Shown here: positions 3,013-37,709 of the stretch, one piece after another
Layout of the letters: the number at the start of each line of letters is the position of its first letter
How positions within the stretch are numbered: position 1 is the stretch's first letter
Virus record (IMG/VR): IMGVR_UViG_3300014160_000008
Coordinates: 1 to 38,126 of that record
From: a virus
Lineage: Duplodnaviria; Caudoviricetes
Direction: 5' to 3' (one strand)
Length of the DNA stretch: 38,126 nt
The notes under the pieces: model-generated
Seen by the model: only the letters and a program-made list of their open reading frames with translations
What the model was told of the DNA's origin: nothing
Database searches by the model: none
Position numbers and translations under genes: made by a program

Positions 3013-3698
3013 CCAGTGAACAGCGAACAGCGAACAGTGGTCAGTTCCCGGATATCGACGCCGTGCTCGCTCGCGCCGACGCGCTCGAACGCGCCAGCGC
3101 CGATCTGCTCGCGAAGGCCCAGGAAACCGCGCGGAAACTCGACGCGGCGAACAATCGCCAAAGCGCGGCAGCCAGCATCCAATGTCCGAAATGCGGCGAG
3201 ACGATCAAGCCGGTTTTTTATATCGGCGGGACCGCGACGCGCGAAAACCCCACCGTTATTGATCTTTCGCCGACCGCAACCTTCGGATGCGACGCCTACC
3301 AGGTCTGGGAAGAATGGAAATTCACGGTCGTCACGGCGCCGAAAATCGAGGGGTTGGAAATTCCGAAGGCCTGCCCGTCGTGCAAAAAGCCGATCGATTC
3401 AATCGGCATCGGCTTTTCGGTGCCCGACGACGACGGCCTCGGGCCGACCATGATGTGCCCCGAGTGCAACGACGAAATTTGTTATGCCGTCGGCTGGACC
3501 ATTTTTCATGCCGGCTCGTACACGATGCACTCGCCGCGCCGCTGCAAATCCTGCGGCTGCACCGATGACAACGCCTGCGTCGATGCCGACGGCGAGGCCT
3601 GCGCCTGGTGCGAAGACGAGCCCGACCTTTGCACCGCCTGCATGAGCAAACAAAACCAGGCCGCCGAAGCCGCCGAGGAAGCCCATGAAACGCTGTAG
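3009..3698 (+). CDS. multi-Zn-ribbon protein
   Basis: ATGA overlap. CPKC, CPSC and CPEC motifs, plus C-terminal CKSCGCTDDNAC...CAWC...DLCTAC. Confidence 0.7.
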   Translation: MTSEQRTANSGQFPDIDAVLARADALERASADLLAKAQETARKLDAANNRQSAAASIQCPKCGETIKPVFYIGGTATRENPTVIDLSPTATFGCDAYQVWEEWKFTVVTAPKIEGLEIPKACPSCKKPIDSIGIGFSVPDDDGLGPTMMCPECNDEICYAVGWTIFHAGSYTMHSPRRCKSCGCTDDNACVDADGEACAWCEDEPDLCTACMSKQNQAAEAAEEAHETL

Positions 3699-7944: not shown

Positions 7945-8694
7945 ATGCCGCAAGCGAAACGCCAACAAACGCTGGGGCTCGGCGATGAGACCTTCGGCAA
8001 ATACAACCGCGCCCGGCGGCACTATGAATCGCTGCTCGTGAAGCACACCGGCGAGCCCGCGGCCGTCGTTAATGCATTCGTCAAAGCCGAGTTAATCGCC
8101 GTTCAAACGGGAAATAAAGACGGATCGTCGAAAGACCTGGACGACGAAGGCTGGCGGGCGGTGCTGAACGAAATGGACCGGCGCGTGGGCATGGCCGAGC
8201 GCGGCGAGCCCGGCGCGCTCAGCCCGATTGCGAATGGCGAATCGCGAATGGCGAATGTCGGCCGGCCGGAATCTGCGAAATCTGTGAAATCTGCGGATGG
8301 CTCGGGATCGTTCGACCCCGGCCGCAACCCCAGCGCCCTCGCGACGGCCGCGCAGCGCGGCGCCATTCAGAAGCTCGCGGCCCGCGTCGGCATGACCACC
8401 GAAGATTTGCAGACGATGTGCGAGAAGCGTTGGCGCTGGCGCATCGCCGGCCGGCGCTGGCAGGCCTCGAATCTGATCGAGGCGTTGAAGTCGATCGTGT
8501 ATCAGGATCTGCAACTCGGCGAGCGCGTCGCGAAGCTCGACCGCGACGGCCTGTTCGGAGCCGATCGTGATTTGCTCGACGATTTTCTCGCGACCGCGAA
8601 ACCGAACGCGCTGAAAATCGGCGCGATTCTCTGGGCGGCCGACCTATGCGACCGGTTCGAGATTCCGCTCGCCCCGCGCGAGGACGCGCAATGA
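7945..8694 (+). CDS. gemA: GemA-like (Mu gp16/DUF1018) regulatory protein
   Basis: SSKDLDDEGWRAVLNEM and QASNLIEALKS resemble the N- and C-terminal GemA motifs. Position at the end of the early region. Confidence 0.75.
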   Translation: MPQAKRQQTLGLGDETFGKYNRARRHYESLLVKHTGEPAAVVNAFVKAELIAVQTGNKDGSSKDLDDEGWRAVLNEMDRRVGMAERGEPGALSPIANGESRMANVGRPESAKSVKSADGSGSFDPGRNPSALATAAQRGAIQKLAARVGMTTEDLQTMCEKRWRWRIAGRRWQASNLIEALKSIVYQDLQLGERVAKLDRDGLFGADRDLLDDFLATAKPNALKIGAILWAADLCDRFEIPLAPREDAQ

Positions 8695-12964: not shown

Positions 12965-15466
12965 GTGTCGCAGCTCGTCGACCAGTTCGGGCAGCCGATC
13001 AAACCGGCGCAACTGACCGCGCCGATGCGGCCGGACCAGACGCTGACGACGCAGCGCCGTTTGTGGCGGCAGGCGACGATCGAGCCGACGGAAGTTTTCA
13101 ACGCGGTCATGCGCGCGGAAATCGGCGAGACCGTTTATCTGCAAGACCTGTTGTTCCGCATTTCCTTCGATTCGCGCGTTACCTCCGACAGCGAAAAACG
13201 GGTCGGCAAGCTCGAGCTGGTCGATTTCGGCGTGAGCCCGTTCGAGACGCCGGCGGACCCGGCGAACGATCGCGAGCAGATGATCGCGGATTTCTGCGCC
13301 GAGGCGATCGATCGCATTCCGAATTTCGGCGGCGCCCGGGCGCACCTGGGCGGCGGGCGGCTCTATGGCTGGCGCGTTTGCGAAATGCGGTGGGACCATC
13401 GCACGAGCAAGGGCACGAAATGGCTGCTGCCCGTCGAGCTGCGCGAACGCCGCACGCGCGATTTCCGGCCGAACCCTGCCGATCATTCGCAGTTCCAACG
13501 CTGGGTCGGCCTCGGCTCGCAGATCGTCGAAAATCAAAAGCCGTTGAACCCGCAGACGTTCGGTTGGGCGCCGCTCGAACCGGCGCGGTATCTGGTCAAC
13601 TGGTTCACCAACGATGGGTCGGCCATGCTCGCCGGCCTTTATATCAAGCTGGTTTTCCCGGTGCTCGCGATCAATTGGACGCTGACGCAGTGGGGCGAAC
13701 TGCTCGAATTGTTCGGCAAGGGCTCGGCCGATGTCACCTATGACGCGGTGAAAGGCGGCGAGCAAAACACGGCCAATGCCATCGCCGAAGGCAGCGGCAC
13801 GCCGCTTTGGACCGCGATGAATTCGGCATATTCGATCAAGCGCGAAATCATGACCGGCCGCGCGACCCACGCCGACTTTCACGACCGTGCGAAAAAAGCC
13901 GTCAGCGAAGTGCTGCTCGGCTCGCAACTGACGACGGACCAGGGCACGGTCGGCAGCCAGGCGCTCGGCAACGTGCATGCGCAGGAACTCGACGATCTGC
14001 GGGCGCGCGACGCCAAGCACCTGGCCGAATGCTGCCTGACCGAGCAACTCGTCAAGGCGATCGTCATTATCAATTTCGGGCCGCAAGAGCGGTATCCCTA
14101 TGCCTGGCTGAATTATAAAAAACCGGCCGACCTCAAGCTCGAAATGGCGACCGATACCGGTCTGCATCAGATTGGCGTGCCCCTGTCGAAATCCGACACG
14201 TACCAGCGCTACAACCGGCAGCCGCCGAGCGGGCCGGACGACACGCTGGCGCCGGGCAATAATACCAATGCGGCTGCGGCTGCGGCTGCGGAAAACAATG
14301 GGGGCGCGGGCGGACAGACCTTTGTCGCCCGACCCGCGCCCCGCCGATTCTCCGCCGGCAACGACGGCGGCGGCGACGGCGACACGGCGGCGCCCGACGA
14401 AATTCTCGCCCTCGATGCGCGCCTGCAATCCGAGGCAATCGCGGCGATCGAGGACGCGCCGTCGCTGACCGCGGCCGAAGCGGCGCTACGCGACCTGATG
14501 GCGGCCGTCGAAATCTCTCACACCGGCCGCGTCGCCTACGAGCTTTACCGCGTGCAGGCGCTGGCGCATTTGGCCGGCATTTGGTCGGACATGCGCGACC
14601 ACGGCGAGACGCCGGCGAGGCCGCGCAGCGCGCTATGGCTGCCCCACCGCGCGCGCCTGGCGCGTCTCTGCAAGCTCGGCGATCTGCGGGCTGACGGCCT
14701 CGCCTCCGTAAGCGGACGCGCGTTTGCAACCGTCATCGACGAATGGGCCGACGTGCCGATGCAAGAGGCAATCGATTACTTCGAGCGCAAGGGCATCGTG
14801 TCGGCCGACGAATGGGCCGCGCTCGATGATGCCTACAAACATCGGGGCTTTTTTGCCGCGAAAATCGGTACGGGCGAAGAATTAAAGACCGCTTATGACG
14901 CCATTAACAACGCTTTAAAAACCGGGGCGGCGCGCGATAGCGTCGTGCGCGATCTGCGCGCGAAACTCGCCAATCCGCCCTCAACATCCTATTTGCGATT
15001 TTTGTTCGATGAAAACGTCGGCACGGCGCAGGCGTTCGGCCGCTATGCCCGGCAGGAAAAAACCAAGGCCGACCGTCCCTACGGCCGTTACGTGACGATG
15101 GGCGACGGCCGCGTGCGCGCGCGGCACGCCGCGGCGCATGGCGTCGTCAAGCATTTGGATCATCCCTGGTGGCAGCGCAACACGCCAAAAAACGGCTACC
15201 GCTGCCGCTGCGAGAGGAACACCTACACGGCCGCCGATCTGGCCGCGCATGGTTGGTCCGAAACGCCGGGCACGCCGCCGGACGTTTGCGATCCGGGCTT
15301 CATGCACACGATGAGCGCGGCGGCCGGCGCCGACGAACGCTTGAACGCGCTGGTCGCGCAGTCGCACGAAGACGGCCTGCTCAGCGGTTATGACGTTCCC
15401 GCGATTATCACATTCGGTTCGGACAAAGGCCGGCCGATCATCGTCGGACAAAGGAAGGCGCAATGA
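12965..15466 (+). CDS. portal protein (Mu gp29/DUF935) fused to Mu gpF (gp30) head morphogenesis domain
   Basis: Portal motifs LVDQFGQPI and VSEVLLGSQLTTDQGTVGSQALGNVH. gpF motifs QEAIDYFERKG, YVTMGDGRVRARH and WWQRNTPKNGYRCRC, all in one uninterrupted frame. Confidence 0.88.
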   Translation: MSQLVDQFGQPIKPAQLTAPMRPDQTLTTQRRLWRQATIEPTEVFNAVMRAEIGETVYLQDLLFRISFDSRVTSDSEKRVGKLELVDFGVSPFETPADPANDREQMIADFCAEAIDRIPNFGGARAHLGGGRLYGWRVCEMRWDHRTSKGTKWLLPVELRERRTRDFRPNPADHSQFQRWVGLGSQIVENQKPLNPQTFGWAPLEPARYLVNWFTNDGSAMLAGLYIKLVFPVLAINWTLTQWGELLELFGKGSADVTYDAVKGGEQNTANAIAEGSGTPLWTAMNSAYSIKREIMTGRATHADFHDRAKKAVSEVLLGSQLTTDQGTVGSQALGNVHAQELDDLRARDAKHLAECCLTEQLVKAIVIINFGPQERYPYAWLNYKKPADLKLEMATDTGLHQIGVPLSKSDTYQRYNRQPPSGPDDTLAPGNNTNAAAAAAAENNGGAGGQTFVARPAPRRFSAGNDGGGDGDTAAPDEILALDARLQSEAIAAIEDAPSLTAAEAALRDLMAAVEISHTGRVAYELYRVQALAHLAGIWSDMRDHGETPARPRSALWLPHRARLARLCKLGDLRADGLASVSGRAFATVIDEWADVPMQEAIDYFERKGIVSADEWAALDDAYKHRGFFAAKIGTGEELKTAYDAINNALKTGAARDSVVRDLRAKLANPPSTSYLRFLFDENVGTAQAFGRYARQEKTKADRPYGRYVTMGDGRVRARHAAAHGVVKHLDHPWWQRNTPKNGYRCRCERNTYTAADLAAHGWSETPGTPPDVCDPGFMHTMSAAAGADERLNALVAQSHEDGLLSGYDVPAIITFGSDKGRPIIVGQRKAQ

Positions 15467-17505: not shown

Positions 17506-17970
17506 ATGAAAAACCTAACCTTGATTCTTTCGGTTTTCGCGCTGCTCGTCGCCGGGGCGATCGCGGCTCTCGATTGGCCATCGCCGGCGAACGCCGTGCA
17601 GACCGCCCCGCAGATCGACCATAGCGTCAACTTGCAGGTCGGCGGCAGCGTGCGGCTCGATTACGCGACCGCCTCGACGCCGCCGCTGATCGACGCGGGC
17701 AACCAACTGGTCTCCGGCGGCTTCTACGTTCGTTCGGCCAGCACGGCGACCTGCGCGAGCGTGTGTTCGCCCGGAATTTGCGCGTTCGGCCAGGTCACTT
17801 CGACGACTCTCCTGGCCGCCTGTTCGGCAAGCATCAGCGGTTCGTGCGTCTGCCTGACGACAACCGGCGACGACGACAACGACGATAACGACGACAACGA
17901 CAATGACGACAACGATAACGACGATAACGATAACGACGACAACAACGACAACGACGGTTCGCCCGCGTAA
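17506..17970 (+). CDS. signal-peptide protein with six-Cys domain and Asp/Asn-repeat tail
   Basis: AAAGGAG RBS. MKNLTLILSVFALLVAGAIAA, then CASVC...C...C...CVC, then DDDNDDNDDNDN repeats. Confidence 0.75.
   Translation: MKNLTLILSVFALLVAGAIAALDWPSPANAVQTAPQIDHSVNLQVGGSVRLDYATASTPPLIDAGNQLVSGGFYVRSASTATCASVCSPGICAFGQVTSTTLLAACSASISGSCVCLTTTGDDDNDDNDDNDNDDNDNDDNDNDDNNDNDGSPA
17868..17955 (+). repeat. GAC/AAC low-complexity coding repeat (Asp/Asn)
   Basis: gacgacgacaacgacgataacgacgacaacgacaatgac... read directly from the sequence. Confidence 0.85.
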
Positions 17971-19708: not shown

Positions 19709-20277
19709 TGTCTGACGCCTTCGAATTCATTGACGACAACATCCGCGCGCAAATCCGCGCGCGGATCGAATCGTTGAAAAGCCCCGAGCGGCTGTGGAAC
19801 GCGGTCGGTGAACGCCTGGCGTCATCGATCGACGAGAACTTCGAGGTCGGCGGCCGGCCGAATCGCTGGGCCGCGGTGAAGCTCGAAACGCGCCTGATGG
19901 CCGCGGGCCTGCGCAGCAAGGCGCAATTGTTCGGCAAGCGCGGCGGCGTTCGCGCGAGCGATCTGAAAAAGGTTGCGCTGAAAAAAATTCTAGTGATGAG
20001 CGGCCGGCTCCGGCGGTCGATATCCTATTTCTTCCAAGGCCTATTGTTCATGATCGGCTCCAATCTGGTCTATGCCCGCATTCACCAACTCGGCGGCATG
20101 ACCGGGTCGCGATATCACCCGTTCTATATGAAGCCGCGGCCGTACCTCGTCATTCAGGAGGAAGACAAAAAGGGCATTACCCAGATCGACGTTCCGCGCT
20201 GGCTCGAAATATCCGTGGCGATCGTATTGATCCTGTTGATCCTGTCGAAAAATGCCGTTATTCCGGAGGTCGCGTGA
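19708..20277 (+). CDS. Mu gpG-like virion morphogenesis (tail completion) protein
   Basis: ENFEVGGRPNRWA, LVMSGRLRRSI, GSNLVYARIHQLGG and KPRPYL motifs. Confidence 0.85.
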   Translation: MSDAFEFIDDNIRAQIRARIESLKSPERLWNAVGERLASSIDENFEVGGRPNRWAAVKLETRLMAAGLRSKAQLFGKRGGVRASDLKKVALKKILVMSGRLRRSISYFFQGLLFMIGSNLVYARIHQLGGMTGSRYHPFYMKPRPYLVIQEEDKKGITQIDVPRWLEISVAIVLILLILSKNAVIPEVA

Positions 20278-20837
20278 CGACGTACGCCGCCCTCGCGAAA
20301 CAATTCATCGTGCGCCTGGCGTCGCTGAAAGGCGGCCCGCTGCCGCTGCGCGCCGTCGGCTATTACATGGGCGACCTGGACTCGCTCGTCGACGATCTCG
20401 AAGCGGGCGACGTGCCCGTGCCGCCCTGCGCCTTCGTGAAATTCGACCGCGAGGATATGCACGAGGAAGGCGCACTGACCGAGGACCGCTCGGGCCTGCA
20501 TTGGGCGGTCATCGTCATCGCCGAAAATCTGCGGTCGAGTTACGACGCGGCCGTCGCCGCGCCCGACGCGGCGCTCGCGATTTTGTTCGCCGTGCGCCGC
20601 GCCGTCGTCAATTTTATCCCCGCCGGCTGCGACACGCCCGTGCGCTGGGGCGGCGCGCAAAGCCTGTGGGAATCAAAAAAAAGAAATTGCTGCGTTTACC
20701 TCGGGCGGTTCTTCCACGAGGCGCAGATCTGCGATGAGCCGACGTTCGCGCCGCCGATTACGTCCGTGCAATCCACGGCCGCGGTTGACGGGCGCCGCTT
20801 CTTTCAACGCACCGACAAAATGCCGGAGGGAAAATGA
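20274..20837 (+). CDS. Mu gp37-like tail terminator
   Basis: GGAGG RBS and GTGA overlap. VIVIAENLRS motif; synteny gp36-G-gp37-gp38-sheath. Confidence 0.65.
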   Translation: MTTYAALAKQFIVRLASLKGGPLPLRAVGYYMGDLDSLVDDLEAGDVPVPPCAFVKFDREDMHEEGALTEDRSGLHWAVIVIAENLRSSYDAAVAAPDAALAILFAVRRAVVNFIPAGCDTPVRWGGAQSLWESKKRNCCVYLGRFFHEAQICDEPTFAPPITSVQSTAAVDGRRFFQRTDKMPEGK

Positions 20838-21019
20838 CAGGAAAACTTTTCGTGCCGAAAACGGGCGTCGTGATTCCGCGCCACGGCGCCGCGCGTGGGG
20901 ACGTGCCGGCCGCCGGCGAGCGCCTCACGGCGGAGAACGCCAACTATTACCGGCGCTGCGTCGCGCGCGGCGAGGGAACGATCGTCGATGCGCCGGCGGC
21001 GAAAGGGGGTCAATCATGA
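20834..21019 (+). CDS. Mu gp38-like (DUF2635) protein
   Basis: VPKTGVVIP...VPAAGE...YYRRCVARGE pattern, directly before the sheath gene. Confidence 0.75.
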   Translation: MTGKLFVPKTGVVIPRHGAARGDVPAAGERLTAENANYYRRCVARGEGTIVDAPAAKGGQS

Positions 21020-22929
21020 TGTGGCACTGGCTTGGCCTGCTGGCCTTCTGGACCTTTGCCTGCTGGGGCCTGCGGATCGTGTTTCAGAACCTCGACCCGA
21101 GCGATCATTCGCCCGGCCTTTATATGGAAACTGTGTTCACGCCGGGCCAATCCGTCGGCGCGCAGCCGTATATGCTGCTCTTGATCGGCCAAAAGCTCGG
21201 CGCGGGCTCCGCCGGCGCCGGCCAGGTCTATACGCCGATGCGCGAGAACGACGTGATTTCGCTCTTCGGCGCGGGCTCGATTTGCTGGCGGATGTGGAAA
21301 GAAGCGCGGCGCATCTGGCAGGGCCTGCCGATCGGCGTCTTGCCGATGGCCGACCCGACGGTCGGGGCCGCCGCGGGAAACATCATTTTTTCCGGCCCGG
21401 CGACGCACGCCGGGAACGCCGTGGTCACGATCGGCAATGTCACGGTCACGTTCGCCCATGCGGCGGATGCGACCGCGGCGGACGTCGCGGCCGGCGTCGC
21501 GGCGCTGCTCACGTCGGGCGTGCAGCCGGGTTTGCAGGCCACGGTGGCCGTTGACGCCGACAACACGGCGAAACTCAACGTGACGCAAATTCCGGGCCGC
21601 GGCAATATCGTCCAACTGGCCGCGGCCTTCTCCGGCGGCAGCACGGGCGTAACCGCCGCAGTCACCCAAACGACCGGCGGCGGCTTCGCGCGCGGCGGCA
21701 TTTTGTTCGCCGGCGCGGCGACGGGCAACGGCAGCGTCACAATTGATATCGGCGACAACGTCGAGGTCGTCGCGACGTACCAAACCGGCGACACGGCGGC
21801 CGATCTTTGCGCCGCGGTCGCCGCGTTGCTGACGGCCGCCGCGCAGCCCGGCCTGCAGGCCGAGGTCGCGCAGGACCTGGCGACGCCGGCGCAGTTGGAT
21901 GTTTATCACAAGCACATCGGCGTGCTCGGCAACGAATTGCAATTGCGCGCGACGTTCGGCGAAAACGCCGGCCTGTCGGCGACGGTTGCGCAGCCGGCCG
22001 GCGGCCTCGGTACGCTCGATCTGACGACGGTCGAATCGGTGGTCGGCGACGCCGGTTACAACTATCTCGCCTGCGCGGTCAACGATGCGACGAACGGCGT
22101 GACGCTCGCCCGCTGGCTCGCCGACTTCTGGTCGGGCGCGGTCGGCAAACCGACCGTCGGCGGCCTTTGCTCGCTCGACACTTACGCCAATGTGCTGGCG
22201 CTGGCGAACGCGATCCAGGCGAAGCACCTGATGGTGATCGGCTCGCCGGGCAGCGTCTCGCCGAGCTACGCCCGCACGGCCGTCATTATGGCCGAACGCG
22301 CGCGGCGCGATTGCAACGTCTCGCCGAACGACGCGCTGCAGAACTTCGTCACGGGCCTCACCGGCGCGTGGGACCAGACGCAGCAATTCTCGGTCAAGGC
22401 CGGCGAGTGGCGCGCCTGCTTCGATCGCGGCGTTTCGCCCTGCATCGTCAACGCCAGCGGCGACGACGTGCTCGGCTGCGATGTGTGGTCGGAATTCAAA
22501 GACCCGGAAACCGGCCTGACCATCGGCCTGCAATTCTTCACGTTCAGCGGCGTGATGTCCTATCGCCTTTACCGCGTGCTCGCCCGCTGGGCGCGGTCGC
22601 GCGCCGGCGACGCCAATTGGCCGATGCGCGTCGGCACGCAGCCCAAGACGGTCACGGTCACGTTGCCGGACAATTCGAAGGTCAATATTTTGCAATCGGA
22701 CCAATCGCTCGCGCTCGCCTTGCAGGCCCGCGCCGAGGATTTGGACCTCGAACAAAACCATTATCTCAATTTCGTCAGTTCGCGCACGTTCGCGCAGAAC
22801 TACCAGCATCAGGTGCTCGATTACGCCAAAGGCCAGGTCGCGGTCAGCGCGCAAGTCTGGCCGGCGCCGCCGATCGTCGGCATTTTCGGGCAGCAGGTCA
22901 GCAACGCCTCGCCGCCGGAGGACAATTAA
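21016..22929 (+). CDS. contractile tail sheath protein (Mu gpL-like) with hydrophobic N-terminal leader
   Basis: IVFQNLDPSDHSPGLYME...MLLLIGQKL...LFGAGSICWRM matches the gpL N-terminus. AAGGGGG RBS and ATGA coupling at 21016. Confidence 0.88.
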   Translation: MMWHWLGLLAFWTFACWGLRIVFQNLDPSDHSPGLYMETVFTPGQSVGAQPYMLLLIGQKLGAGSAGAGQVYTPMRENDVISLFGAGSICWRMWKEARRIWQGLPIGVLPMADPTVGAAAGNIIFSGPATHAGNAVVTIGNVTVTFAHAADATAADVAAGVAALLTSGVQPGLQATVAVDADNTAKLNVTQIPGRGNIVQLAAAFSGGSTGVTAAVTQTTGGGFARGGILFAGAATGNGSVTIDIGDNVEVVATYQTGDTAADLCAAVAALLTAAAQPGLQAEVAQDLATPAQLDVYHKHIGVLGNELQLRATFGENAGLSATVAQPAGGLGTLDLTTVESVVGDAGYNYLACAVNDATNGVTLARWLADFWSGAVGKPTVGGLCSLDTYANVLALANAIQAKHLMVIGSPGSVSPSYARTAVIMAERARRDCNVSPNDALQNFVTGLTGAWDQTQQFSVKAGEWRACFDRGVSPCIVNASGDDVLGCDVWSEFKDPETGLTIGLQFFTFSGVMSYRLYRVLARWARSRAGDANWPMRVGTQPKTVTVTLPDNSKVNILQSDQSLALALQARAEDLDLEQNHYLNFVSSRTFAQNYQHQVLDYAKGQVAVSAQVWPAPPIVGIFGQQVSNASPPEDN

Positions 22930-22930
22930 C

Positions 22931-23377
22931 ATGACGACGCTCATTCTCGCGATTTTGTTCGGCCTGATGGCATACGCCGTCGGCATCACCGCGATCGAGG
23001 TGCCGCTCGCCGGCATCTACATCATGAAAATCGAAGGGTTCCCGGTGCTCGAACAGGTGAGCTTCAACATCGACGGCCACGACCAGGTGGTTGCCGAGGA
23101 TCTGCTCATGGGCGTCGGGACATCGCTGACGTTCGGCGCGGGCTCGGGTTCGATCGAAACGAAAGAACCGCAAGCGCAATTGATCCCCTGGGAAAGCATG
23201 AACGGCCAACCGCCGATGAACAACGTGGCGGCGTCCTTCGAGCCGATCGCCGGCATCGGCAGCTGCTTCGACTTGCAGAACTTCTACGTCATCAATTGTG
23301 CGACGTTCCGTCAGGACAAAAAGGCGGCGCTCAGTCGCCCCATCAAAATCGGCTGGGCCTCGCTCACGCCGCGGTAA
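22931..23377 (+). CDS. tail tube protein with hydrophobic N-terminal leader
   Basis: Between sheath and chaperone. LAGIYIMKIEG resembles the Mu gpM N-terminus. GGAGG RBS. Confidence 0.72.
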   Translation: MTTLILAILFGLMAYAVGITAIEVPLAGIYIMKIEGFPVLEQVSFNIDGHDQVVAEDLLMGVGTSLTFGAGSGSIETKEPQAQLIPWESMNGQPPMNNVAASFEPIAGIGSCFDLQNFYVINCATFRQDKKAALSRPIKIGWASLTPR

Positions 23378-23384
23378 CAACCAA

Positions 23385-23450
23385 CGGGATTCGGGGCTCG
23401 GGATTCGGCTGCGGCCTCCCGGACCCCGGACCCCGAAACCCGGAACCCGA
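23385..23450 (+). repeat. inverted pair of heptamer tandem arrays
   Basis: CGGGATT-CGGGGCT-CGGGATT-CGG, then CCGGACC-CCGGACC-CCGAAAC-CCGGAAC-CCGA, in the tube-chaperone gap. Confidence 0.7.
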
Positions 23451-23964: not shown

Positions 23965-26145
23965 ATGGCGATGGATATCATGCGTGCGGCGCTAATGATC
24001 GACCTGGGCGGCAACGGCAGCGCCGGTCTTGCGCGCATGAACACCTACTTGGAGAAAACAGGCCTCATCACCGAAAAAAATCGTCCTGGCTGGCGCGGCA
24101 TGACGTCGGACATCAAGAATGCGACGGCCGCGTTGGGGGCATTTTATACCGCCGGGCGTATGATCGAGCGGATCGAGCCCGGCGCGGCCCGGCTGCAAAC
24201 GTCGCTGCGAAATCTGAAAATCAATCTCTCGACCGAGCCGCTCGACGACCTAGACAAGACGATCAAAAAATACAGCCAGAACGCGTTCATGATCCAGGCA
24301 AAATTCGCCGTGGATATGACCGACGTGATGGAGGCGCAGAAGTATCTCAAGGGCCAACAGTGGGGCACGTCGGACATCCTCGGCGTGGGCGGCCACGCGG
24401 CGACCGCGTCGAAAATGGCGACGATCTTCAAGCGCGATTATGCCAATGCGGAAATGGCGGCCGTCGATGTTTCGCAGGCGATGCGCATGTTCGGGTTGAC
24501 GGGCTCAAGTGCGCGCTTCGGCGACATTTTGACGCGCGCCTCGACGATGGGCGTGAACCCGGCCGACCTGATGCATCAAATGGAATACGTGGGGCCCTTG
24601 GCGAAGTCGGCGTTCGGCGCGCGCACGCAAGAGCAGCGCTGGAAGGCCCTGGAAGAGACCGTGTTCGGCATTTCGCTGGGCGTCTCCAGCGGCGCGAAGC
24701 CCGAGGCGATCGGCCGTTACATGGGCGATTTCCTCGCGCGGATGGCCGGCGGCGCCGGCCGCGGGCATCACGGCACGGGCGGCCTGAATTTGTGGGAAAC
24801 CACGGGCACGGGCAAGGACCGCACGAGGCACCTGAAGGATTGGATTCAGATCAGCGACGAGCTGAACAAAAAATTCGGCAACATGACCGACGCCCGCAAG
24901 CGCGAGGCGGAACTCGTAAAAATTTTCGGCGAGCAAGCCGCGCGCCTGGCCGTCGTTTTGATGGACCTCGGCGATCGCGCCAAGACGGCGCGCGAAAAAT
25001 ACCAAAAAGCGCCCGGCGCCGAAGAACGAATCGCCGGGCTCAAAGGGTCGTCCGAGTACGAGACCGCGATCGCCAAGAGCACGCTGAAAAGCATTTCCGA
25101 CCTGGCCGGCCAGCGGCTGGCCGAACACAAGGGCCGGGCGTACGGCCTGCTCAATAGCGTGCTCGGCGTCGGCGGCGACGTGGCCGCCAACGAGAACGTG
25201 CAGGGCGGCCTCGCCTACGGCCTGGAAGGCGGCAAGTTTGTGGCGGGCGGCCTGGCGGCGTTCCTCGCAGCCCGCGGCCTCGTGCGCGGCGCAGGGGCAT
25301 TAAAACAGGCCGGCGGCCTTTCCAAGATTCTCGGCCTCGGTTCGAGCGCCGTCACCGGCGACCTGGCCGGCACGGCGATGCAGCAAATCGACAAAAACCT
25401 GAGGAAGGTGTTCGTCGTCAATTGGCCGAACGGCGGCTGGGGCGGCGGCGCGATCGGCGGCGCGGGACTCGGGCGTTTGTCGGCAGCCGACGAGGCGATT
25501 CTATTCGGCAAAAAAGCCGAGGCGACCGCCGCCGGCGAGGCGGCCAAAGGGTTGACCACCTTCGGCGCCAACCTGACCAACACCAGCACGGCGCTCGGCG
25601 CGTTCGCGTCCGTCGCCGGCTCGGCCGGCCTGGTGCTGGCCGCGATCGCCGCAATCAAAGCCGGCGACGAGGCCAAGGCCGCTTATGACGATCTCGATTA
25701 TCTCAACCGTCTGCCGCATCCGGGCGTCGGCGCGATCGCGAAGACCCGCGACGCCTCGATCGAGCGGGAAATCAAGAAACGCGGATTGAAGGGCAAGGCC
25801 GCGGAAAATTACCGCCGCCAACGAATGGGCAAGCCGCTGCTCTCTGGCCCGAATGACCCGCTGGCGCACGGCTCGATCGCGCACAATATGTTTTTCCCGC
25901 CATCGGAAGACTGGACCGATTTTACCGGCCAGAGCCACAGCGACACGGAATATATGTCGCTGCCCGCGGGCAAAAAACAGTATTCGCGCCCCGCCGGCCC
26001 TTACGATCAAGGGTCGGAAGAAGCGCCGATGCCCTGGGAAATTACCGTCAACGTGAAGGTGGACGACGACCGCACCAAGACGCAGGTCGATGGCGGCTCG
26101 CGCAAGCCGCGCAACGTCAAGCTTCGCACGCAGGGGGCCGAATAA
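23965..26145 (+). CDS. tail tape measure protein
   Basis: About 726 aa, Ala/Gly-rich and helical. LVKIFGEQAARLA and KVFVVNWP motifs. Synteny. Confidence 0.88.
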   Translation: MAMDIMRAALMIDLGGNGSAGLARMNTYLEKTGLITEKNRPGWRGMTSDIKNATAALGAFYTAGRMIERIEPGAARLQTSLRNLKINLSTEPLDDLDKTIKKYSQNAFMIQAKFAVDMTDVMEAQKYLKGQQWGTSDILGVGGHAATASKMATIFKRDYANAEMAAVDVSQAMRMFGLTGSSARFGDILTRASTMGVNPADLMHQMEYVGPLAKSAFGARTQEQRWKALEETVFGISLGVSSGAKPEAIGRYMGDFLARMAGGAGRGHHGTGGLNLWETTGTGKDRTRHLKDWIQISDELNKKFGNMTDARKREAELVKIFGEQAARLAVVLMDLGDRAKTAREKYQKAPGAEERIAGLKGSSEYETAIAKSTLKSISDLAGQRLAEHKGRAYGLLNSVLGVGGDVAANENVQGGLAYGLEGGKFVAGGLAAFLAARGLVRGAGALKQAGGLSKILGLGSSAVTGDLAGTAMQQIDKNLRKVFVVNWPNGGWGGGAIGGAGLGRLSAADEAILFGKKAEATAAGEAAKGLTTFGANLTNTSTALGAFASVAGSAGLVLAAIAAIKAGDEAKAAYDDLDYLNRLPHPGVGAIAKTRDASIEREIKKRGLKGKAAENYRRQRMGKPLLSGPNDPLAHGSIAHNMFFPPSEDWTDFTGQSHSDTEYMSLPAGKKQYSRPAGPYDQGSEEAPMPWEITVNVKVDDDRTKTQVDGGSRKPRNVKLRTQGAE

Positions 26146-27417: not shown

Positions 27418-27448
27418 CAGTGGTCAGTGGCCAGTGGTCAGTGGTCAG
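27418..27448 (+). repeat. CAGTGGY heptamer tandem repeat
   Basis: CAGTGGT-CAGTGGC-CAGTGGT-CAGTGGT-CAG between the gp43 and gp44 genes. Confidence 0.8.
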
Positions 27449-29065: not shown

Positions 29066-29322
29066 AAAAGCGAGAAGCAAGAAGCCGGAAGCCGGAAGCC
29101 GGACTGCGCGCCTGGTTGCGCGGGCAGGCGGAAACGCGTTGCTTTATGGCCGGCCTGCGCGCGGTCGCGAAAAATCCGCGACGGCCGAATTACCGCTGGG
29201 CCCAGTTGTGGAAACGCCTGGCGATCGCGCTCGGCGCGAAATTCGCTGGGAGCGCCGACGCCCTCGTCGGCGACAGAAACGCCGGCGGGGGCGCCGGCGC
29301 TCCCGGCAAGGGGCGCCCGTGA
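29062..29322 (+). CDS. small basic hypothetical protein
   Basis: ATGA and GTGA overlaps with both neighbours. Starts with a heptamer-repeat-encoded segment. Confidence 0.5.
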   Translation: MKKREARSRKPEAGLRAWLRGQAETRCFMAGLRAVAKNPRRPNYRWAQLWKRLAIALGAKFAGSADALVGDRNAGGGAGAPGKGRP

Positions 29323-31054: not shown

Positions 31055-32323
31055 ATGGCCCCCACTACCGACGATGTCGTTCTCGATTTTTACCCGGTTG
31101 CGGGAATTCCGCTCGGTCGCCAGACGACGCTGACGGGCCTGCTGACCGCGGCGCAACAGCTTTATGGCCGCGGCGTCCTGCGCCTGCAGGCTGTGACCTT
31201 CGACCCGTCCACAATTGCGGTTCCTGCGCCGGACGCGCTCTATCTCATTCACCCAGCGGCCTCGCAAAATCCCGGACATCTGGCGGCATTCACCAGTGCG
31301 GATTCGCAATGGCATATTTCGACGTATCCGATCGGCGACGCCATTGTCACTCTCGCCGGTGACGACGGCGTGCACGAGCCGGGAATGCGTTATGCGCTGC
31401 TCGATGGCTTGTTCTGGCCGCTCGACCCGGGGATTCCCCGTCACGTCGTGGACATCGGCGCCATCCATCCGCCGGCCAGTCCAATTGTCGGCGGCCTTTA
31501 TATCCTCGGTGATTCTGCCGCGCGCACGGGCGCCTGGGGCGGCACAGGTTCGATCAATCGCGCGCTCTGGAACGGAACGTCCTGGGTTTTTTACGGGGGC
31601 GACCTTGGCGACTTAAACGGCGGATGTCTGCTTCGCGTGGACGCCGCCGACAACCCAACCGTCGCCGCCCCCGGATTGTATTGGTGGCGCGGAGGCGCTT
31701 TCGTTCCGCGGTTGATCAAATCTGATGCGCTGCCCGGCGATATCGATCTGACGATTCATAACATGATCCCGGACGTTTCAGGCGTCACCGCGCCGGGTCT
31801 CTGGGTCGTCGGGCCGGATGATGGGATTCCGACGCTCTATTTGGCCGTTCCCGGCGGCAATCCGATTCGCCTCGGTCAATTGTGCGGAATTCAAATCGCC
31901 GACGTGGCCGGGCTCTCGGACGCGCTGGCGGCGGCCGGCGGCCCGCAGCGCACCTATGCCCGCAACGTCAATCTGGTGCAGGCAAATAGCTTCGTCGATT
32001 TCGATGCGACGATTACCGTGCCGGACGGCAAAAAGTGCATCTTCACGAATCTATATAGCTGGGTGCAGAGCGGCGGCACGGTCCAGTTTCTCAACGGTGA
32101 CGCGCTTTATATCGTCAGCGCAGGTTTGACCGTTCTCGCCGGCCACACGCAGCCGACGCAATTGCAGCATATCTGGCAGACCATCATCCGCGCGCTGACC
32201 AACGTGGACGGCCCGATCGAGAGCGGCGTGACGCCGCGCATCGAGATCGATGGGGCGGACAGCGGGGCGGACGCCGCGGGCCTCGCGACCTTCATGCTCG
32301 AATATATTTTTGTGGATGCGTAA
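31055..32323 (+). CDS. tail fibre/receptor-binding-type protein with DUF2793-like repeats
   Basis: HPPASPIVGGLYILGDSAARTGAWGG...ALWNGTSWVF and IADVAGLSDAL motifs are typical of fibre proteins. Confidence 0.55.
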   Translation: MAPTTDDVVLDFYPVAGIPLGRQTTLTGLLTAAQQLYGRGVLRLQAVTFDPSTIAVPAPDALYLIHPAASQNPGHLAAFTSADSQWHISTYPIGDAIVTLAGDDGVHEPGMRYALLDGLFWPLDPGIPRHVVDIGAIHPPASPIVGGLYILGDSAARTGAWGGTGSINRALWNGTSWVFYGGDLGDLNGGCLLRVDAADNPTVAAPGLYWWRGGAFVPRLIKSDALPGDIDLTIHNMIPDVSGVTAPGLWVVGPDDGIPTLYLAVPGGNPIRLGQLCGIQIADVAGLSDALAAAGGPQRTYARNVNLVQANSFVDFDATITVPDGKKCIFTNLYSWVQSGGTVQFLNGDALYIVSAGLTVLAGHTQPTQLQHIWQTIIRALTNVDGPIESGVTPRIEIDGADSGADAAGLATFMLEYIFVDA

Positions 32324-34454: not shown

Positions 34455-34943
34455 CTAGCCCGGAGTGCAGTCCGACGGCGGCCCGGCAATGCCTTCTTGC
34501 ACCAACGCGACAAAACAATTGCTCATAATCTGGCAACTGGAACCGGCGTAATAAATGCACTGTCCGAGCTGCTGCGTCACGCCATACGGAACTTGGTTGT
34601 TTTCGCAAGCCGAAACGAACTGGGCCTCGGTGCAGCCGACGATCCCGAGGCCGCATTTCGTGCAGAAAGCGTCGTAGAGGGATTGGCAGGTCGGTCCGCT
34701 GTCGTCGTCATCGTCGTCGTTGTCGTCATTGTCATCATCATCGTCGTCGTCATCGGCCGCATCGTTATCGTCGTCGGCCGCATCGTCGTCGATCGTAGCG
34801 TCATCATCGGCGGTCGGCGAGCCGTCGTCGTCGGCGGCGACGTAAATGTTATTCGTGGTCTTGGCGCCGGGAGCGCACGTCGCCAGGAGCAAGAGGCAGC
34901 CGGCCAGGAGCAAGGACGCGATCGCGACAGTCAGGGCCTTCAT
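34455..34943 (-). CDS. Asp-rich, Cys-rich lipoprotein (moron)
   Basis: Lipobox LLAGC, poly-Asp linker, C-terminal domain with 9 Cys. GGGAGA RBS. Only convincing minus-strand gene in the window. Confidence 0.82.
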   Translation of the reverse strand: MKALTVAIASLLLAGCLLLLATCAPGAKTTNNIYVAADDDGSPTADDDATIDDDAADDDNDAADDDDDDDDNDDNDDDDDDSGPTCQSLYDAFCTKCGLGIVGCTEAQFVSACENNQVPYGVTQQLGQCIYYAGSSCQIMSNCFVALVQEGIAGPPSDCTPG

Positions 34944-35843: not shown

Positions 35844-36650
35844 ATCACAACTTCCGCGCGCCAGTTTTCACCCAACGCCCCGACGCCGATCGAGCACGTC
35901 GCCGGCGTCATGGTCAAACGCGATGATCTTTTCGAAGTCGCCGGCGTGTGCGGCGGTAAAGCACGGGCCTGTCTGGGTTTGGTGCGAAGAGCCCCAAAGC
36001 CGCGGCTCGGTCTCGTCACGGCCGGCGCGGCCGCATCGCCGCAGGTAAATATCGTGGCCCACATTGGCGCGGAATTGGGTCTGCCGGTGCGGGCGCACGT
36101 GCCGAAAACGAAGGTACTGTCGCCGGAAATTGCGGCGGCGAAGGCCCGCGGTGCGGAGATCATTCAGCACGCGCCTGGCTACAACACCGTGATCGTCGCG
36201 CGCTGCCGCGCCGACGCTCGCGCTCGGGGCTGGATCGAGATCCCATTCGGCATGGAGTGCCCCGAGGCCGTCATACAGACGTGGCAGCAGGCGGCGCTGC
36301 TGCCCTGGGGCCAATTCAAACGGATCGTCATGCCCTGCGGCTCGGGAATGAGCCTCGCCGGCGTCCTCTGGGCCCTGAAAGAATCGGGATGCAGAACGCC
36401 GGTGATTGCGGTGCGTGTCGGCGCGGACCCGAGCAAGCGGCTCGATGAGTACGCGCCGGATGAATGGCGGGCGATGGTTCAGATCGTCGATTCGGGAACG
36501 GGCTACAAAATGGCCGCAGAAACGCAATGGAACGGAATCACCCTCGATCCGCACTATGAAGCAAAGGCGGCGAGGTTCGTGCAGCCGGACGATCTTTTTT
36601 GGATCGTCGGGCTGCGGCAGACGGTTAAGCGCTCTTTAACAACTGAATAA
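35844..36650 (+). CDS. PLP-dependent fold-type-II enzyme (ACC deaminase/D-cysteine desulfhydrase-like); start uncertain (ATC 35844 or ATG 35910)
   Basis: PTPIE...VKRDDLF...GGKAR (Schiff-base Lys), VMPCGSGMSLAG (phosphate-binding loop) and LDPHYEAKA motifs. Confidence 0.85.
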   Translation: MTTSARQFSPNAPTPIEHVAGVMVKRDDLFEVAGVCGGKARACLGLVRRAPKPRLGLVTAGAAASPQVNIVAHIGAELGLPVRAHVPKTKVLSPEIAAAKARGAEIIQHAPGYNTVIVARCRADARARGWIEIPFGMECPEAVIQTWQQAALLPWGQFKRIVMPCGSGMSLAGVLWALKESGCRTPVIAVRVGADPSKRLDEYAPDEWRAMVQIVDSGTGYKMAAETQWNGITLDPHYEAKAARFVQPDDLFWIVGLRQTVKRSLTTE

Positions 36651-36806
36651 TGACGGTTTTTTAGGTGTAAAAACGCCCCGAAAAAAAGGGGCAGAGTTGG
36701 CATGTTAGCGCATGCCGAACCGACGACGCTTGCACGTCGCCCCGACGAAGCCGGCTGCCCCTAGCGAGAACACAGGCATTCTAGCCGGCGAAAAAGGGAT
36801 GACAAG

Positions 36807-37709
36807 ATGCAGTCTTCATTGCGTGATTCGTTCATCGTGCCGCCGTTCAGCGTTCTGGATGCGCGGCAGGGTTATTGGCAGGAGCGGAAACGGCGCTGGC
36901 TCGAGCTGATCGGCGAAATGCGGCCGACGTGCCCGCAGCCGCTGTTTCACGACGTTTCGATCGGCGGGAAAACCAAGAAGATCAAGGACGGCAAAAACCT
37001 CTCGATTTTCGACCCGGTTCTTGCCGAAGTGCTTTTGCATTGGTTCTGCCCCGTCGCCGGCGACGTGTTCGATCCGTTCGGCGGCGAGGCGGTCAAGGGC
37101 ATCGTGGCGGCGACGTGCGGCCGGCAATATTTCGGCGTCGAAATTCGGCCGGCGCAGGTCTGGGAAAATCGGCGCATCGCCAAGCGTCTCGGCGCGACGC
37201 GTTGCACCTGGTTGATCGGAGACGCCGGCAAGCTCGCCGCGCTCGTGGCGGCGCAGCGGACCTTCGATTTTGTGTTTTCTTCACCGCCATATTGGAACCT
37301 CGAACGCTACCGCGGGCCGCGCGGCGATCTCTCCGAGGCGCGCGATTACGGGTCATTCCTGGCCGCCTTTGAGCGCATCGTTTGCCTCTCGGCCGAGCGG
37401 CTGCGGCCCGGCCGGTTCATGGCGATCAAGGTCGGGAATTTCCGCGATCGCCGCGGGGCGCTGATCGATTTTGTGGGCGACACGGCGCGTTGCGGCGCGG
37501 CGGCCGGCCTGGCGTTCTACAACCAATACGTTCTCGCCGGCGTGAATGGCGCCGCGCCGCTGCGAGGACGCGGCATGATGCGCACGCGCAAATGCGCCCC
37601 GACCCATCAGGCGGTGCTGGTCTTTTTCAAGGGCAACCCGCGCGAGTTCGATCGGCGCGCGTTCCCGGAGATCAAGAGATACGATGATCCGCTTCCGGCT
37701 GCGGAATAA
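36807..37709 (+). CDS. SAM-dependent DNA amino-methyltransferase-like protein (N6-A/N4-C type)
   Basis: Motif I-like VFDPFGGE...GVEIR precedes motif IV FSSPPY. N-terminal VPPFSVLDARQGYWQERK and SIFDPVLAE patterns resemble phage MTases. Confidence 0.85.
   Translation: MQSSLRDSFIVPPFSVLDARQGYWQERKRRWLELIGEMRPTCPQPLFHDVSIGGKTKKIKDGKNLSIFDPVLAEVLLHWFCPVAGDVFDPFGGEAVKGIVAATCGRQYFGVEIRPAQVWENRRIAKRLGATRCTWLIGDAGKLAALVAAQRTFDFVFSSPPYWNLERYRGPRGDLSEARDYGSFLAAFERIVCLSAERLRPGRFMAIKVGNFRDRRGALIDFVGDTARCGAAAGLAFYNQYVLAGVNGAAPLRGRGMMRTRKCAPTHQAVLVFFKGNPREFDRRAFPEIKRYDDPLPAAE

Follow-up and report, generated by a model that had tools for sequence, protein, structure and literature searches.

In a Mu-like prophage, the tail sheath and the likely tail tube both open with a hydrophobic leader of 18 residues, ending in Gly18 directly ahead of the point at which the homologous proteins start. 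We call the whole stretch of DNA analysed, 38,126 nucleotides in length, the window. The leaders are real, unusual and restricted to a single lineage; their role, judged from sequence, is putative. Our tentative reading, held at somewhat less than even confidence, is that the tail core is built by way of the membrane: both precursors would be clipped after Gly18 and drawn from a membrane or periplasmic pool, a step like that of filamentous phages, newly added to a Mu-type tail. The clade would already be exporting a capsid-adjacent protein. The accepted view is that contractile tails are built in the cytoplasm from soluble subunits. Should sheath and tube travel via the membrane or secretion, two short added leaders can break this cytoplasmic-assembly rule, the leaderless close relatives offer a ready before-and-after comparison, and it becomes more credible that tailed phages can, in some cases, mature components outside the cytoplasm. 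Neutral leaders would instead show the N-terminal tolerance of tail proteins. With one lineage and an uncultured host, the case carries limited weight. Hydrophobic leaders on contractile sheath or tube proteins were not found reported in the open-licence literature.

The window is a Mu-like prophage lying in a host contig (G000:C5), in which a repressor-like gene and the start of the transposase gene adjoin it on the left. Mu-like genes identified within it include those for transposase, Gam, terminase, portal, gpI, gpT, gp36, gpG, terminator, gp38, sheath, tape measure, gpN, hub and wedges, and the order gp36-gpG-terminator-gp38-sheath-tube-chaperone-tape measure-gpN-baseplate is common to the window and phage Mu. 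A single base, at position 24017 in the tape measure gene, differs between the window and both G000:C5 and L012. The portal and a gpF-like minor head protein are fused as one ORF (12965-15466), likewise in both close relatives.

The sheath ORF (21016-22929, plus strand) begins MMWHWLGLLAFWTFACWG-LRIVFQNLDP. Its leader (21016..21069, +) contains no D, E, K or R and is only moderately hydrophobic (mean KD 1.03); Arg20 follows directly after the hydrophobic segment. The 619-residue body (21070..22929, +) is 45-47% identical to its two closest relatives. The whole protein matches phrog_165 in a profile search (E 3e-46) and its gene stands after gp38, which at the level of sequence confirms it as a relative of Mu gpL. 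A profile built from 60 sheath hits matched the window protein at E 3e-46 and 3e-36 and the Mu sheath at E 4e-184; the window sheath thus matches the Mu-type profile (Mu sheath gp39, gpL; tube gp40, gpM; PDB 9khy). Compared with Mu, the window sheath also has an extra duplicated domain, a tandem copy of about 105 residues (21364..21678, +) that is 46% identical to the domain following it and is not found in the relatives. The sheath without its leader contains 8 Cys, and none of 135 full-length hits contains more than 7; its Cys density of 1.3% is close to that of two relatives (1.0-1.2%); the terminator, which has no leader, is also raised in Cys (5, against 0-1 in relatives). An AlphaFold model of the sheath was too poor for use (pLDDT 45), with the leader drawn as a helix at low confidence.

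The next ORF (22931-23377, plus strand) begins MTTLILAILFGLMAYAVG-ITAIEVPLAG. Its leader (22931..22984, +) likewise has no D, E, K or R and a mean KD of 2.05, against 1.03 for the sheath leader; no positive charge follows the hydrophobic segment, where Glu23 stands instead. From position, size and end-to-end alignment, on which its link to the family rests, this ORF is likely the tail tube: it lies between sheath and chaperone/tape measure, its 130-residue body (22985..23377, +), which has 2 Cys, falls in the 115-135 residue range of Mu gpM-type tubes (PF10618), and it is 38-50% identical to seven leaderless homologs. Searches of Pfam, PHROG and PDB gave no significant match for it, Atlas hits fell below the Atlas bar, hhalign against 22 Mu-like tubes gave a probability of 0.34 (E 0.18), and the structure model (pLDDT 33) was too poor for use. 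Sixteen bases of the tube leader (22946-22961) match the terminator gene exactly (20574-20589), both encoding LAILF in frame; with E 0.05 genome-wide, the match is probably chance.

Several observations indicate that translation starts at the upstream ATGs, with which the leaders begin. The initial annotation had described both leaders as uncharged, hydrophobic, 18 residues long and ending at Gly18, behind good ribosome binding sites (RBSs) and with an ATGA-coupled sheath start, and all of this holds in the ORF translations and in pairing with the canonical anti-SD, by which RBS strength was measured. ATG 21016 overlaps the TGA of the gp38-like (DUF2635) gene (20834..21019, +; ATGA/TGATG), with ATG 21019 an equally possible start, and is preceded by the RBS AAAGGGGG (21002..21009, +; -11.6 kcal/mol). 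The tube RBS, GGAGGA (22917..22922, +; -9.5 kcal/mol), lies within the end of the sheath gene, as in relatives. Both pairings are among the strongest in the late operon. The downstream starts that the annotation had named as alternatives pair more weakly (GTG 21079, -4.7; ATG 22967, -2.0), and the upstream starts look real. The spacing of stop, RBS and ATG equals that at the relatives' gene starts, so the leader codons lie downstream of the ancestral initiation region. The start regions are less folded than shuffled sequences (z +1.8 and +1.6).

The leaders are not an assembly error, because contigs from several runs cover them identically: those from runs X1-X3 span both leaders with no difference, one of these runs possibly being the source sample, and those from X4 and X8 span the tube leader; the low-share runs X5, X6 and X7 gave fragments only. 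No deletion or joint at the leaders was found in four runs at 90% identity. Excision or bypass of the leaders at the RNA level was considered and rejected: no stable hairpin spans them (z +1.8 to -0.15), and they hold no in-frame stop. Of the host's open intergenic 17-codon stretches (n=22,664), 132 are uncharged and of mean hydropathy at least 0.98 (the sheath level) and 23 are uncharged and at least 2.0 (the tube level). By a purpose-made gene caller and dicodon model, the leaders have codon scores of 8.2 and 11.9, against a median of 10.4 for host hydrophobic coding windows (n=5,276). The median for 425 uncharged hydrophobic intergenic windows is -8.8; 6.6% of them reach 8.2 and 3.1% reach 11.9, and the high-scoring "intergenic" windows listed resemble uncalled small genes.

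We then compared the leaders with homologous N-termini. The initial annotation had taken absence of the leaders from related phages as evidence against its proposal, and no related phage examined has them. They occur in 0/4 prophages of the host family, 0/22 other Mu-like loci and 0/7 tube homologs, and in 0/150 other sheath hits among the matches listed (database gene calls, judged by eye and by a hydropathy column). The close prophages of the host family, in G003 and G006, have sheaths 45-47% and tubes 47-50% identical to those of the window and no leaders; two more distant Mu-like prophages of that family (G001 and a second in G006) lack them as well. The 22 other loci comprise 14 viral contigs and 8 annotated phages, and no such stretch occurs at their gene starts or in the open frames upstream; Mu and 21 other Mu-like loci begin directly at the N-arm, to which the window sheath and tube each add 18 hydrophobic residues. 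The seven tube homologs include two pairs that are near-duplicates or prophage types already counted, and four are gene calls without DNA. A search for closer leader-bearing relatives found none among viral contigs (1 locus), genome contigs (2) and metagenome contigs (2, one being the window's own DNA). Among 17 genomes of the phylum, 4 gave a sheath match, G000 included, and a sheath 45% identical occurs in the record of Deltaproteobacteria bacterium fen_1099, a lineage now presumably placed in Lernaellota. Being absent from all relatives examined, the leaders are a one-lineage innovation, and no conservation or covariation backs a function for them.

The claim that the leaders end just before the normal N-terminal region fared better. 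All seven tube homologs (7/7) begin at the column of Ile19, and two close sheath homologs have Met1 in the Gly18 column. Met is removed before Ala or Pro, and a sheath cut at G18/L19 would therefore have the same N-terminus as the close homologs after Met removal. Since homologs start at the residue 19 or Gly18 columns, a cut after Gly18 would restore the ancestral length in both proteins.

We evaluated the leaders as signal peptides with a home-made segment model, not SignalP, trained on 315 host proteins with signal-like starts and set against a cytoplasmic control that was deliberately non-hydrophobic; it learned A/S/G/V at -3 and A/G/S at -1. The best sheath site is CWG/LRI, after Gly18 (posterior 0.69), and for the tube the model is undecided, giving residues 16, 18 and 20 nearly equal posteriors (0.25-0.26 each). 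Both leaders have small residues in the -3/-1 pattern (C-W-G in the sheath, A-V-G in the tube) and an h-region, with a best 11-mer KD of 2.9 in the tube and a marginal 1.9 in the sheath. The positively charged n-region of a Sec/signal peptidase I signal is missing, as neither leader has K or R; of 499 host proteins that have an early h-region, only 15 are without K/R in the first 8 residues. Ranked against host signal peptides, the sheath scores at the 8th percentile and the tube at the 2nd; at 18 residues, both leaders are also shorter than the 2nd length percentile, 19 residues, of the signal peptides predicted in the host. With low scores, short length and no early K/R, the leaders are weak, atypical signal peptides at best. 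On a biological scale, the best 17-mer sums are -1.7 (tube) and +1.5 (sheath).

Two other processing routes were rejected. In a type IV prepilin (class III) signal, a short basic leader ends in Gly at -1, with Glu at +5 and a hydrophobic helix beyond the cut. The tube's G/ITAIE resembles a pilin site, but its hydrophobic stretch precedes the Gly, the sheath has no Glu+5, and no N-methyl family match was found at E<=1. The lipobox of a lipoprotein (signal peptidase II) signal is L-[AS]-[GA]-C; the sheath has T-F-A-C16, and the tube leader has no Cys.

The explanation we consider best, though still doubtful at roughly a third of our confidence, is that the leaders act as Sec-type signal peptides, though short and atypical ones, with host signal peptidase I predicted to cut behind Gly18; two genes for this enzyme are present in the host. 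The leaders would bring sheath and tube subunits to the inner membrane, and the peptidase would remove them to give proteins of ancestral length. Tube and sheath might then polymerise from an extracytoplasmic pool, either in the periplasm or once lysis has opened the inner membrane, and disulfides may form in the exported subunits. We infer each of these steps: membrane targeting, export, cleavage, extracytoplasmic polymerisation and perhaps disulfides. A capsid-adjacent, Cys-rich gene (17506..17970, +) provides context. It sits between the decoration and capsid genes, is Cys-rich in its C-terminal part and has no family match of substance; the same position and signal peptide recur in 3/3 relatives with a visible start, its counterparts being L006 14896-15609, L007 9340-10461 and one in L033 (reverse strand, between decoration and capsid genes). 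Because this gene carries a classical signal peptide, the clade already exports one late protein; any link to the leaders is hypothetical.

Export has one main difficulty: leaders are missing from the baseplate, tape measure and chaperone, the parts on which polymerisation of tube and sheath normally takes place. No leader was found on the chaperone, tape measure, gpN, hub, spike, wedge or terminator genes, and since only sheath and tube carry one, export would part them from baseplate, tape measure and chaperone. In addition, Arg20 after the sheath h-region favours a C-terminus inside, against export. Both points are accommodated if the leaders are instead N-out/C-in anchors that would keep subunits at the inner membrane on its cytoplasmic side. 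Tail assembly would take place there, together with the cytoplasmic baseplate and tape measure, and a cytoplasm-facing or intramembrane protease would free the subunits at Gly18. All tail parts would then share one compartment, neither leader has a basic n-region, the tube segment is strongly hydrophobic (-1.7), and the Gly18 boundary coincides with the relatives' N-termini. We nevertheless regard anchoring as unlikely: the sheath segment is a borderline membrane span (+1.5), the tube has Glu23 rather than a positive charge behind its segment, and the only peptidase found among the window proteins scanned is the Mu gpI-type head protease, with no phage-encoded signal peptidase among them.

Equally improbable in our estimate is that the leaders arose by chance, as insertions behind the start codon, and are either tolerated or, in a prophage that has ceased to make particles, have disabled tail assembly. 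Their restriction to one lineage is consistent with this, as is the presence in this prophage of host repeats in frame. Host heptamer repeats lie at gene boundaries or in frame at 3014-3037, 8230-8257, 23385-23449, 27418-27448 and 29074-29103, the one at 3014 directly behind a start codon. A host repeat also gives the gpG-like tail completion protein 20 extra hydrophobic residues at its C-terminus (20209..20268, +), with 36 genome matches at E<=0.01. This gpG tail had been a candidate for a third "membrane" tail protein and was dropped, being derived from a host repeat; we judge it incidental. Its origin means that hydrophobic extensions can arise by chance in the prophage. Repeat-bearing open intergenic windows are uncharged and hydrophobic in 97/5,550 cases, and the sheath leader shows weak 8-base periodicity. 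However, neither leader matches a host repeat at E<=0.01, and their likeness to tandem units of the host does not exceed that of controls, with 5.7% and 50% of 600 hydrophobic coding windows reaching equally high scores; a mobile or repeat origin was rejected on these grounds. The leaders' codon scores are coding-like, and the repeat-derived extensions within the prophage score below both (2.3, -8.2, -2.0 and -10.6). Two adjacent genes for 1:1 partners share the length and character of the leader and its terminal Gly. The bodies have not diverged unusually and give no sign of decay, as they are conserved like other virion genes (45-50% against 33-53% identity).

Less probable again is that the leaders are retained in the tail, packed against one another between tube and sheath or serving as a lipid-binding tube surface after contraction. 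Sheath and tube are 1:1 neighbours, the sheath leader is modelled as a helix at low confidence, and phage 80alpha tolerates uncleavable leaders on its capsid protein (PMC5744158). Against retention, the 12 extra helices per ring would have little room, the extended Mu sheath has a pore of 79 Å with its N-arm locked in a handshake sheet (PMC11915804), and residues 1-7 of the Milano tube form the inter-ring contact (PMC10811340). These two N-terminal contacts argue for leader removal, if the phage makes particles. A further point against retention is that SRP is expected to be the first to meet a nascent hydrophobic N-terminus. Least credible is that downstream starts (CTG 21070/GTG 21079; ATG 22967/ATC 22985) yield most of the protein and the long forms are minor membrane-bound isoforms, since, although codon 19 is near-cognate in both genes (CTG and ATC, one base off ATG), these four sites pair at only -2.0 to -4.7 kcal/mol against -9.5 and -11.6 upstream, the upstream context is the relatives' start context, and sheath and tube are high-copy proteins.

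Returning to export by signal peptides, the nearest known process, by analogy, would be found in filamentous phages, whose coat proteins carry type I signal sequences (PMC4823517). Ff pVIII and pIII resemble the window proteins in that a virion part is made as a precursor with a hydrophobic leader; Ff subunits, as described there, keep a transmembrane helix and assemble during export, whereas the window bodies are soluble contractile-tail proteins. The window leaders also differ from those of Ff in having no basic n-region, and their processing is predicted only. The initial annotation had drawn an analogy with staphylococcal Prp, which shares with the present case the notion that virion proteins lose N-terminal leaders to a host protease, in 80alpha the capsid and scaffold proteins; Prp cuts F/A within an L27-like motif (PMC5744158). 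The analogy did not hold. The window leaders are hydrophobic and not alike, and would be cut at G/L and G/I; Prp (PF04327) was not found in G000, which is 94% complete, and host L27 begins MAHKK, unextended.

Agrobacterium phage Milano also has a Mu-type sheath with raised Cys, and its sheath and tube are disulfide-linked (PMC10811340). In the main text of that paper "periplasm" has 0 occurrences, and any disulfides in the window proteins are hypothetical. Type VI secretion systems (T6SS) and the Streptomyces contractile injection system (CIS) with CisA (PMC12237407) link a tail-like machine to a membrane, as proposed here; there a dedicated anchor holds the machine, whereas in the window each tube and sheath subunit would bear a hydrophobic segment. 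The window further differs from these systems in containing head and transposition genes.

Other features of the window lie outside the leader question. A 422-aa gene with a weak DUF2793 match (31055-32323) is inserted between the gp47 and gp48 wedge genes; G003 has none at the same place, and the window gp48 is shorter than those of the relatives. Between the fibre and CHAP-domain genes, a gene on the minus strand (34455-34943) has a lipoprotein-like start and Asp-rich repeats. At the right end (35910-37709 and beyond), a PLP-dependent (PALP) gene and a DNA methyltransferase gene are a possible DNA-modification module in place of Mu mom.
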